From contig CAYLHD010000004.1 of NCBI GenBank assembly GCA_964383545.1, forward strand, positions 1 to 30,599: a DNA stretch of 30,599 nt, in the 5' to 3' direction. Every line of letters begins with the position of its first letter. The first letter of the stretch is position 1. This DNA comes from an uncultured Candidatus Saccharibacteria bacterium. GTDB taxonomy: Bacteria; Patescibacteriota; Minisyncoccia; Phycocordibacterales; UBA12079. The translations under genes and the position numbers were made by a program. A model generated the notes under the pieces. It was given only the letters and a program-made list of their open reading frames with translations. It did not search any database and was not told the origin of the DNA. Positions 14,238 through 15,257 of the stretch are shown one piece after another.

Positions 14238-14257
14238 TGCGGAGACGAGAGGATTCG
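14238..14257 (-). repeat. Direct copy of the tRNA-Ser 3' end
   Basis: TGCGGAGACGAGAGGATTCG is identical to 14415-14434 (20/20). Confidence 0.95.
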
Positions 14258-14345
14258 GTCACCAGTTCTAAGTTCAGACTTTGCCCTAAACGGACCCGTC
14301 TTCACTAAGAACCCTCGACCCTGCTCACTCGGTACCCTCGTTCGT

Positions 14346-14363
14346 TTCGAATCCTCTTGTCTC
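14346..14363 (+). repeat. Inverted copy of the tRNA-Ser 3' end
   Basis: TTCGAATCCTCTTGTCTC is the reverse complement of 14419-14436 with one mismatch. An inner hairpin 14378-14390/14397-14409 (12/13) lies between them. Confidence 0.92.
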
Positions 14364-14416
14364 TATTACAAGCTGTCAATTTAAAATATCTCAACCGATA
14401 TTTAAAATTACCAGTG

Positions 14417-14503
14417 CGGAGACGAGAGGATTCGAACCTCTGATGCAGTTTCCCGCATGCCGCTTTTCGAAAGCGGTGCCTTCAACCTCTCAGCCACGTC
14501 TCC
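14417..14503 (-). tRNA. tRNA-Ser(CGA)
   Basis: Acceptor GGAGACG/CGTCTCC + G73, anticodon arm CCGCT-TTCGAAA-AGCGG, long variable arm ATGCGG-GAAA-CTGCAT, T arm AGAGG-TTCGAAT-CCTCT. CCA not encoded. Confidence 0.96.
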
Positions 14504-14617
14504 ATTAAATCTTCTTATTTTCAAAAATTTTGAATATGTTCATTTTATGATACCACTACGATTGAACAAGTTCATCTACTTCCGCTTCGCTCCAGATGAA
14601 TACTCCTAAAAATCGTA

Positions 14618-14641
14618 TTCATCCTCTCAGTCACGTCTTCA
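14618..14641 (-). repeat. Diverged direct copy of the tRNA-Ser 5' end
   Basis: TTCATCCTCTCAGTCACGTCTTCA vs 14481-14504 TTCAACCTCTCAGCCACGTCTCCA, 21/24 identical. Confidence 0.88.
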
Positions 14642-14668
14642 ATGTGGTATAGTAAATCTACCATTTTT

Positions 14669-14696
14669 TTGCTTTTTTGACAAAAATTGGTATAAT
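14669..14696 (+). promoter_or_regulatory. Probable promoter for the tRNA-Glu region
   Basis: TTGCTT (14669-14674), 16 bp, TATAAT (14691-14696) with TG at 14688-14689. Confidence 0.55.
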
Positions 14697-14793
14697 TTCG
14701 AACGAGTATTCATAAAAATGAATTTGTCAATATTTATTTTTATGTAATAGGAATGATGGAATTATATGCTTGTTTCATATAATTTCCTTAATT

Positions 14794-14818
14794 ATATGGC
14801 CCTATCGTCTAATGGTTA
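14794..14818 (+). repeat. Exact direct copy of the tRNA-Glu 5' end
   Basis: ATATGGCCCTATCGTCTAATGGTTA is identical to 14979-15003 (25/25). Confidence 0.95.
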
Positions 14819-14982
14819 TTGGAATTTAAAACAAACTGCTTTGTTTTAAATCCGGTTCTGAGCTGACGAGGAAATTTCCGTTATTGAGCGAAGTAAGATA
14901 GGAAATAGGATAAGGCTTTGTAAAAGCTGATGTCTAGTATAAGATTAGATAAATATAGTTAATTTAAAACAGAATATAATAT

Positions 14983-15054
14983 GGCCCTATCGTCTAATGG
15001 TTAGGACATCGGCTTTTCAAGCCGGCAATCCGGGTTCGATTCCCGGTAGGGTCA
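14983..15054 (+). tRNA. tRNA-Glu(TTC)
   Basis: Acceptor GGCCCTA/TAGGGTC + A73, anticodon arm TCGGC-TTTTCAA-GCCGG, T loop TTCGATT. CCA not encoded. Confidence 0.96.
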
Positions 15055-15137
15055 CAAATTAAAAACAGCTGAAAAAGCTGTTTTTAATTTGTGACCCTAC
15101 AGAAAGCAAATAATTTTGCTTTCGTCGGGAATCGAAC
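15046..15137. repeat. 25-bp perfect inverted repeat including the tRNA-Glu 3' end, continuing as an inverted T-arm copy after an inserted hairpin
   Basis: 15046-15070 pairs with 15076-15100. 15126-15137 is the reverse complement of 15034-15045. The 25-nt interruption contains the hairpin GAAAGCAAA/TTTGCTTTC. Confidence 0.95.
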
Positions 15138-15243
15138 GGCGGAGTATGTTGTGACTGAAAGGAACAACAACGAGCCGTGTCCCGCGGCACTTAACGAATA
15201 AGGAGCTTGTGACGAAATGAGTTTAGTGACCGTCAGGACGAGA

Positions 15244-15257
15244 CCGGTAGGGTCACA
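15244..15257 (+). repeat. Direct copy of the tRNA-Glu 3' end
   Basis: CCGGTAGGGTCACA is identical to 15043-15056 (14/14). Confidence 0.88.

Follow-up and report, generated by a model that had tools for sequence, protein, structure and literature searches.

How folded single-stranded sites integrate has been established for integron cassettes and for the attP of CTX phage. Insertion into tRNA genes, with the gene rebuilt and a partial tRNA left as a direct repeat, is known from tyrosine-integrase islands such as the P4-like islands and the tycheposons. Here, we describe a family of small elements that resembles both kinds of system in part and that was found at two tRNA genes, tRNA-Ser(CGA) and tRNA-Glu(TTC), in a 30,599-nt stretch of DNA (the window; contig CAYLHD010000004.1) from an uncultured Candidatus Saccharibacteria bacterium. 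The family is widespread, apparently undescribed, and gained and lost between nearly identical strains. On balance, the evidence tips towards miniature, non-autonomous, gene-restoring integrative elements of about 120–200 bp with strand-specific hairpins, mobilised in trans.

A 3′ element of this kind would have three parts: a replacement gene 3′ end (now the working tRNA end) with a short AT-rich trailer; the inverted complement of this part, which closes a long hairpin (hairpin L) that is usually interrupted by a small conserved hairpin; and a conserved GC-rich hairpin (hairpin R). The original gene 3′ end would be displaced to a position directly after the foot of hairpin R, where it is seen as the distal direct copy. 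The 5′ units would be a mirror image, entering the D-arm region and bringing their own −10 box. What the data show directly is that the family exists, how it is built, that it is polymorphic and how its copies are related.

The nearest published analogue that we found is the tycheposon, which stacks partial tRNAs (bioRxiv 10.1101/2020.12.28.424599). As with tycheposons, repeated insertions stack fragments, and the loci are hot spots of strain variation and inversion. A direct repeat of a tRNA segment bounds the inserted DNA and an intact tRNA stands at one end, as in a tRNA island, but the bounded 120–200 bp hold no integrase gene or remnant. Unlike tyrosine-integrase islands, the units carry no cargo at this length, have the inverted gene-end copy and the conserved hairpin as integral parts, sit at both gene ends in mirror orientation and have at least one protein gene among their targets.

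In CTX-phage attP(+) and in IMEX, two target-like sequences lie inverted about 90–150 nt apart and fold on one strand to mimic the target. The corresponding spacing is 90 nt in the Ser unit, and 106 nt (T-arm copy) and 146 nt (acceptor copy) in the Glu unit. Hairpin integration of the CTX-phage type predicts the order seen here, namely target, cargo, inverted copy, spacer and direct copy. The targets differ, being tRNA gene ends and an ftsZ end and not dif; the units also lack a phage genome, and a single-stranded intermediate is suggested by their G.T asymmetry only. Integron attC sites are likewise imperfect, strand-specific hairpins (60–140 nt) with conserved unpaired positions, and cassettes without an open reading frame (ORF) are conceivable. 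Hairpin R resembles them in its one-strand folding, with 16 G.T(U) against 1 A.C. The arms of the units differ from attC in copying the neighbouring gene. The attC core (RYYYAAC/GTTRRRY) is not seen: TCGAA(C) terminates the inverted copies in the window, and the direct copies have no GTT before them. Nor does the window contain an adjacent integron integrase with the IntI-specific insertion.

The TsaD protein served as a handle for comparison, giving 24 genome loci and 36 metagenome loci, and further loci came from exact-protein look-up; individual loci are given below by L numbers.

Copies of two tRNA gene ends

Read in its own direction, each tRNA is preceded by a direct copy of its 5′ end and followed by an AT-rich hairpin, an inverted copy of its 3′ end, a GC-richer spacer and a direct copy of its 3′ end. 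This layout was first put forward, with its offsets, in a preliminary description of the sequence, and a repeat finder recovers every copy at the spacing given there. The features are:

14238–14257, minus strand: Ser distal 3′ direct copy, 20/20 to 14415–14434 (spacing 177), from T-loop to discriminator plus CA
14253–14330, minus strand: Ser unit core, hairpin R, on the tRNA-sense strand (model R1, 23.9 bits, E 0.003–0.009)
14346–14363, minus strand: Ser inverted 3′-end copy, 17/18 complementary to 14419–14436 (T-loop, T-stem 3′ strand, acceptor 3′ strand)
14364–14415, minus strand: Ser AT-rich trailer hairpin (inverted repeat, DNA fold)
14416–14503, minus strand: intact tRNA-Ser(CGA) (ARAGORN; Rfam tRNA 55.2 bits)
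14504–14617, minus strand: Ser 5′ unit, between distal 5′ copy and tRNA, with a hairpin and the motif CTGGAGCGAAGCGGAAGT
14618–14641, minus strand: Ser distal 5′ direct copy, 21/24 (spacing 137), acceptor 5′ strand and D arm
14791–14818, plus strand: Glu distal 5′ direct copy, 27/28 (spacing 185), 7-nt leader and tRNA positions 1–21
14819–14982, plus strand: Glu 5′ unit, with a hairpin (14821–14854), a decayed inverted copy (14922–14934) and a TATAAT box (14975–14980)
14983–15055, plus strand: intact tRNA-Glu(TTC) (ARAGORN; Rfam tRNA 66 bits)
15046–15137, plus strand: hairpin L of the Glu unit, made of a palindrome, a small hairpin (15101–15125) and the inverted T-arm copy (15126–15137)
15091–15100 and 15126–15137, plus strand: Glu inverted 3′-end copy in two pieces (repeat finder)
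15168–15243, plus strand: Glu unit core, hairpin R, on the tRNA-sense strand (model R1, 28.6 bits, E 2e-4 to 6e-4)
15244–15257, plus strand: Glu distal 3′ direct copy, 14/14 exact (spacing 201)

The Glu distal 3′ copy can be extended to the left as far as the CGA of the T-loop at roughly 17/20 (by eye). Across 2000 shuffles of the flanks, neither the Glu copies nor the direct copy of the Ser 3′ end was ever equalled, the Ser inverted copy was equalled once, and all three copies at a length of at least 10 nt never occurred together.

In the Glu unit, the "AT hairpin" is a palindrome whose 25-nt arms (15046–15070/15076–15100) match perfectly and which swallows the last 11 nt of the tRNA, and the 25-nt hairpin at 15101–15125 splits the inverted copy. 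In folded single-stranded DNA, the entire T arm and the acceptor 3′ strand of tRNA-Glu pair with the inverted copy, and the DNA fold of 15030–15262 reaches −68.4 kcal/mol (z = −12.8). At tRNA-Ser, the long and interrupted hairpin L consists of the tRNA end, the trailer hairpin 14364–14415 and the inverted copy; the same trailer hairpin follows tRNA-Ser in L030 but the distal copy in L027. Hairpins with arms of 20–33 nt that include 9–12 nt of the tRNA were found at five tRNAs in the Patescibacteria set and at none outside it.

The 5′ side of tRNA-Glu also carries a decayed inverted copy, of tRNA positions 35–23 (14922–14934, 12/13), so the layout is mirror-symmetric around this gene; the TATAAT box of the unit stands immediately before the working tRNA. 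The Ser 5′ unit is present in L030, L032, L072 and L039, where its hairpin is preserved through compensatory changes, and is missing in L031, where the promoter region adjoins the tRNA. The distal copies bear G-to-A changes: the Ser 5′ copy in the window has two relative to the perfect copy in L030 (19 nt perfect; 18 nt exact in a separate scan), and the Glu 5′ copy in L027 has GG-to-AA. Hairpin loops with a G-N-AGCG-N-AGCGGAG-like motif recur in many intergenic regions of these genomes, for instance at window 14583–14598 (reverse complement GGAGCGAAGCGGAAGT) and at L032 5572–5595, 8203–8228 and 8446–8485; these regions include the Ser 5′ units and the L032 repeats described below.

Misassembly had been named as a possible source of the copies. 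Three further assemblies, made independently (ENA and JGI), have the Glu unit with 100% identity, and therefore it is not an assembly artefact; this explanation falls away for the Glu and the 5′ units and might apply only to the Ser 3′ allele (14238–14363), which was seen in the window alone. A look-up of the ORF that overlaps this Ser allele gave no match.

Hairpin R, the conserved core of the spacers

The preliminary description held that the two tRNA genes share the architecture and not the sequence. This does not hold for the GC-rich spacers, both of which contain the same conserved hairpin R, detected with a covariance model (R1) that was built from six cores, none of them from the window. 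By nhmmer, the window Glu spacer is related to the tRNA-Glu and tRNA-Val units of L039 (E about 1e-7), and the cores of L038 Phe, L006 Glu, L032 Glu and L039 ftsZ are related to one another (E about 1e-5). The common part of the cores is a long hairpin, GGGGTCGCGAGTACTTAGTA ... TACTTAGTRAYTYGTGACC, whose 3′ foot in the Ser unit (GGTGAC) adjoins the distal copy. The cores have 51–53% GC (0.51 for the Ser core), compared with 32% for the window.

In an eight-member alignment, 90.7% of cells are paired and 16/22 pairs show changes on both sides; this alignment was fitted to the model, which favours structure. None of 500 shuffles equalled the covariation score, and slid controls were 32–46% paired. 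The mismatches are 16 G.U(T) against 1 A.C, and thus hairpin R folds as a single gene-sense strand, RNA or DNA. The hairpin L of the Glu unit weakly resembles hairpin R (model search, E about 0.08). Rfam found only tRNAs above threshold, nothing over the window cores even at E up to 10 and nothing over the cores of three related loci at E up to 1. Known RNA families and ribozymes, tRNA-like RNAs and HEARO/omega-type RNAs were set aside on the same ground, as no Rfam covariance model matched.

Recurrence in related Patescibacteria

The arrangement is found at other tRNAs of related genomes. In a non-redundant set, 19/44 Patescibacteria tRNAs have an exact copy of their own end of at least 11 nt within 300 nt; direct copies number 11 upstream and 7 downstream, and a further 7 downstream copies are inverted. 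In other phyla, 0/15 tRNAs have a downstream copy, and the five upstream matches are neighbouring similar tRNAs. The downstream layout of the relatives, with the inverted copy at about +36 to +82 and the direct copy at about +160 to +210, is repeated at L032 Val, L039 Glu and L027 Ser and is partial at L038 Phe, L005 Val/Glu, L039 Val and L006 Glu. L038 has at least three tandem 158-nt units, each opening with a tRNA-Glu 5′ copy. At tRNA-Phe, the contexts in L038 and in L041/L006 are not comparable as filled and empty sites. The neighbouring tRNA-Val had been noted as free of copies; this is so in the window, but L032, L039 and L005 have units at tRNA-Val.

The units are always oriented like their gene. 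The 5′ units sit between promoter and tRNA and would therefore be transcribed as a leader; when aligned, they share a common motif and a compensated hairpin. Upstream of its tRNA-Val, L072 (6524–6662) has a layout unlike that of the other units: 13 nt of the Val 5′ end are repeated (GGCTAACCGCCCC, plus strand) on the far side of a segment about 125 nt long, at whose borders stand the inverted repeats TCACTCAGAAAAGTG / CACTTTTTCTGGGTGA.

These loci also bear on whether the units are decayed large tRNA-integrating islands of the lambda/P4 tyrosine-integrase type, in which an internal deletion left two att arms. A direct repeat of a tRNA 3′ segment is the classic signature of such islands, and they occur in this group: L007 is a normal example with a 45-nt copy 5 kb away, and L032 has a restriction-modification island with a tyrosine recombinase between tRNA-Ser and tsaD. 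Partial tRNAs also pile up in islands of other streamlined bacteria, the tycheposons. We nevertheless consider this origin unlikely. About ten independent units have one compact layout, which random deletion would not reproduce; the inverted copy runs straight into a structurally constrained core; identical units stand in tandem; tblastn of the window found no integrase pseudogene fragments; and a lambda-type scheme predicts no inverted copy about 90–150 nt from the direct one.

The ftsZ site and the origin of the copies

Contrary to the first proposal, the family is not restricted to tRNA genes, since a core of the hairpin R family also lies at the 3′ end of ftsZ in L039 (2052–2385). The final 39 nt of this ftsZ are present twice, and an inverted copy stands directly after the stop codon, in the palindrome TTCAAAGCTTA/TAAGCTTTGAA. 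The direct copies have four differences in their common coding part, all at third codon positions, and both encode VPAFLRRSKLK*. Four random changes would rarely all be silent, and thus each copy has a history as coding sequence. Counted by eye, the inverted copy agrees with the proximal one at 19/19 positions and with the distal one at 16/19. From this we infer that the element brought the proximal end together with its inverted partner and displaced the host's own end, now the distal copy. In L027, the native tRNA-Ser trailer hairpin stands after the distal copy and not after the tRNA; this and the G-to-A decay of the distal copies agree with that inference. The Ser distal 3′ copy of the window (14238–14257), behind which come 16 nt of leader and then, at 14221, the start of tsaD, is likewise read as a displaced original gene end. 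The L039 ftsZ may carry a stack of two cores; a degenerate direct copy, AGTCCCGGC, stands after the first of them.

An element that carries its own gene-end copy is thus favoured by the synonymous-only ftsZ differences, by the match of the inverted copy to the proximal copy and by the native trailer after the L027 distal copy, and a mechanism that copies local tRNA sequence, as first suggested, becomes less likely. The synonymous-only differences also disfavour simple target-site duplication.

Another reading is local mutation without any mobile element: template switching at terminator hairpins during replication would extend palindromes into the gene end, and slippage would make the direct copies. 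Quasi-palindrome correction is an established mutational process that could hold copies matched to their tRNA over time, and the palindromes here are perfect and centred on trailer hairpins. Yet such a process cannot yield a homologous GC-rich core at different genes in genomes whose TsaD proteins are only about 50% identical, and it explains neither the synonymous-only divergence of the ftsZ copies nor the insertion of 197 nt of new sequence between near-identical strains described below; we regard it as very improbable.

Gain and loss between near-identical strains

Contigs that encode a TsaD or DUF389 protein identical to that of the window align with it at 99.5–100% outside the units. A 197-nt unit at the tRNA-Ser 3′ end, made of a hairpin, an inverted T-arm, hairpin R and a 20-nt duplication, is present in L027/L026/L079 and not in the window. 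Between the Ser trailer hairpin and tsaD, the window has inverted copy, core and direct copy, whereas in the other strains this place is taken by an ORF of 136 aa that is fused to the start of tsaD. The 185-nt Glu 5′ repeat (copy and unit) is single in the window and tandemly doubled in the near-identical L079. More distant relatives also have alleles free of units: tRNA-Glu in L030 has none on either side, and tRNA-Ser in L031 has none at its 5′ end.

The 136-aa ORF directly before tsaD is found at L027 852–1262, L031 449–859 and L029 1–117 and is absent at window 14222–14237 and L030 8970–8981; it has no Pfam or NCBIfam match. Its loss by microhomology deletion is possible because the ORF and tsaD both start with ATGAAAAT. 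In L081 1–330 (= L078), the Glu hairpin and unit, 100% identical to the window from 15049, are joined at GGGTCACA to an unrelated left context; this context lacks tRNA-Glu and has a promoter-like TATAAT site and the terminal part of an ORF fragment of 79 aa. The fragment has no Pfam, PHROG or homologue match and no DNA match in any locus; the junction belongs either to a larger inserted element in a co-occurring strain or to a second genomic copy.

The divergent tRNA-Ser/tRNA-Glu block is inverted relative to tsaD and tRNA-Val when the window and L027 are compared with L030/L031, and a second, independent inversion separates L032 from L072, whose recombinases are 95% identical (compared were window 14238–15257, L030 8412–8982, L031 127–441, L032 4533–5531 and L072 6450–7197). 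The breakpoints lie near tRNA 3′ ends. The sequences suggest that the inversion is recurrent and possibly recombinase-mediated. The four contigs with identical TsaD (L025–L028) are all short (1.5–5.9 kb), and L026 ends within the tRNA-Glu palindrome; the units probably break short-read assemblies.

Presence and absence in such closely related strains bears on the idea of a selected RNA or cis module, which might be a tRNA-precursor processing or termination structure or a small RNA mimicking the acceptor/T helix. The GC-rich core in a 32% GC genome, the covariation and the bias of G.U over A.C on the gene-sense strand fit such a module, as do the shared orientation of unit and gene and the need for 5′ units to be transcribed as leader. 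The units, though, are present or absent between close relatives and between strains with identical flanking proteins, and the core also stands at the end of a protein gene, ftsZ; these two findings disfavour the selected tRNA-processing module that was among the first proposals. In addition, a terminator-like hairpin with a T-run lies between tRNA and core, no promoter-like site precedes the core, the copies gather mutations and Rfam has no match. A selected module is thus rather improbable. Also rejected was a regulatory mimic for the cognate synthetase, since the downstream gene is tsaD.

A possible route of integration

If the units are gene-restoring elements, they would enter within the gene end, 3′ units at the T-loop, through a site-specific recombination that leaves the gene whole, as is the case for tRNA-targeting islands. 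The element would be moved in trans because it encodes no enzyme, and the recombination substrate would probably be a folded single strand because hairpin R folds on one strand only. Afterwards, units would have decayed or been amplified in tandem between direct copies, and alleles would have been replaced, which would give the present mosaic. On our analysis, the order of gene end, trailer, inverted copy, about 100 nt and direct copy may be the outcome of integrating a folded single-stranded site that mimics its target.

Several points weigh against these gene-restoring elements. How one family gains matched direct and inverted copies for many targets is left without an explanation. No recombinase or transposase was found in the window or within 10 kb of most unit-bearing loci, and searches for an excised circle, an autonomous relative or a phage or plasmid copy found none. 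Distal copies are anywhere between 5 and 39 nt long, and some units, L039 Val and L005 Val, have none, so the data do not fix the crossover point. No allele was found that differs solely by the absence of either 3′ unit of the window, and the exact junctions of these units are therefore deduced. Across distant genomes, the 5′ units show no significant nhmmer similarity. Finally, the G.U bias and the covariation of hairpin R would fit an RNA equally well.

Strand-specific hairpins could also belong to non-autonomous relatives of IS200/IS605-type (Y1/HUH) elements that insert after GGTT (T-loop) or GGTG (ftsZ), with survival only of those copies that happen to carry a matching gene end. Like IS200/IS605-derived palindrome elements and REP/REPIN, the units are small, gene-less, hairpin-bearing, strand-specific and intergenic and would be mobilised in trans. 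The right end is occupied by hairpin R, whose foot stands at the junction; the sequence before the junction is GGT(T/G) at ftsZ and at several tRNAs (by eye); and the Glu hairpin L is weakly like hairpin R, as noted above. Those families, however, have family-wide hairpins at both ends and neither duplicate nor restore their target, whereas here 14–39 nt of target stand on both sides and the left hairpin is made from the target; as it differs for each target, no single protein could recognise it by sequence. No Y1 transposase was noticed in any locus, although no systematic Y1 search was made. We think this origin quite unlikely. Nor do the ends of the inserted segment form mutual inverted repeats (by eye), as those of a miniature inverted-repeat transposable element do.

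The retron msr-msd resembles the units in its terminal inverted repeats, which close small hairpins and one long hairpin. In the units, by contrast, the terminal repeats copy the neighbouring gene; there is no Rfam match and no adjacent reverse transcriptase, the neighbours being tsaD, tRNA-Val and the DUF389 protein gene. A tRNA-primed retroelement with a primer-binding site was rejected since the inverted copy runs into the gene trailer and not into CCA. A TnpB-type guide RNA (scaffold with a flanking guide) was rejected by reasoning: the rebuilt gene would recreate the target beside the motif and lead to self-targeting.

A further and more tentative possibility is that the units represent a new class of micro-elements without genes, in which a copy of the end of the target gene folds as a single strand and so forms the attachment site. 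The fold at tRNA targets would then resemble the acceptor/T-arm helix of the tRNA-gene DNA, and the target would be chosen through nucleic-acid mimicry or pairing and not through a sequence that a protein recognises.

Candidate enzymes and origins

The window has no integrase, as the preliminary description already stated: tblastn with a Patescibacteria integrase against the 30.6-kb window had no match, and Pfam found no recombinase and no transposase in the scanned ORFs. For a phage or plasmid origin, viral-contig pattern scans gave nothing or chance coding matches, and blastn against phages and plasmids gave nothing. The claim that the family is undescribed is supported, in that Rfam, phages and plasmids gave no match and full-text literature searches no description.

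In the relatives, a candidate enzyme is a 270-aa tyrosine recombinase (PF00589 and PF13495) whose best solved relative is IntI4. In L032, this recombinase scores 219 bits against TIGR02249 (cut-off 265) in two stretches and falls just below the archaeal XerA cut-off. With 270 aa, compared with 315 positions in the model and 320 aa in the IntI4 chain, it may be without the insertion specific to IntI. Homologues at E ≤ 1e-20 number more than 7000, and among the matches listed the best 120 are 63–95% identical. The gene lies between the tRNA cluster and tsaD with the restriction-modification island, with defence genes divergently upstream. These defence genes are separated by repeats of about 165 nt, which have the ends GCATAAC...GTTAGGC on the cassette strand (GCCTAAC/GTTATGC on the other) and inner arms that resemble a tRNA 3′ end.

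L032 5772–9996, L071, L072, L073 and L076 have an integron-like arrangement. A conserved 130-nt 5′ region of the recombinase gene starts right after an RYYYAAC-like motif. Genes for TdeIII restriction-modification, GmrSD and others lie divergently upstream of the recombinase in L032, L071 and L072, a Tsp45I restriction-modification system lies downstream of it in L073, and in L032 a gene of 88 aa stands between two attC-like repeats, each about 165 nt long. A direct link between the units and an IntI/XerA-like recombinase was not established: the gene is absent from the window and the other unit-bearing loci, and R1 finds no hairpin R beside it. From its sequence, this recombinase is a candidate enzyme and a lead only.

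The tRNA cluster and its neighbourhood

Over its 30.6 kb, the window has 32% GC, and its annotated ORFs are housekeeping genes; among the scanned ORFs, one of 418 aa had no Pfam match. The closest relatives of its TsaD come from metagenome-assembled genomes labelled Saccharibacteria, Parcubacteria or Kaiserbacteria (Patescibacteria, also called the candidate phyla radiation). The tsaD and DUF389 genes bracket the three tRNAs, Ser(CGA), Glu(TTC) and Val(GAC). The remaining features of the cluster are:

12956–14221, minus strand: tsaD, with its start at 14221, on one side of the tRNA cluster
14642–14700: promoter-like region between tRNA-Ser and tRNA-Glu, outside the units (...TGGTATAAT on the plus strand)
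15353–15427, plus strand: tRNA-Val(GAC) (ARAGORN, Rfam)
15470–16195, plus strand: DUF389 membrane-protein gene, on the other side of the cluster

The promoter-like sequence is kept between Ser and Glu in L030, L031, L032 and L072. Between this common promoter and the Glu distal 5′ copy, the window has about 90 nt (14701–14790) with palindromes at 14747–14797 and 14761–14813. This segment has no counterpart in L030, where promoter and tRNA-Glu are 14 nt apart, and it may be another small insertion.

Implications

The first description proposed an undescribed element family, and this proposal is supported in part and in a sharper form. The loci of the relatives support a recurrent family of small elements without a recombinase of their own; restriction to tRNAs and unrelated spacers have to be given up, and the copying of local sequence has become less likely. 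Annotation of tRNAs and prediction of islands can go wrong at such fragments of gene ends and such hairpins.

Patescibacteria have tiny genomes and, to our knowledge, few recognised mobile elements. If the proposed elements are real, a gene-rebuilding family of 120–200 bp that stands at a large share of tRNA genes and turns over between strains with identical flanking proteins would be a major unrecognised source of structural variation in Patescibacteria and a likely reason why contigs break when their metagenomes are assembled. Should the hairpins act as target-mimicking sites for recombination of a single strand, the attC/CTX principle would extend to arbitrary gene ends, and such sites could be of interest as programmable integration sites. 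Should the units form a new class, one family would colonise the ends of many tRNA and protein genes in the minimal Patescibacteria genomes and drive local inversions and cassette swaps there.

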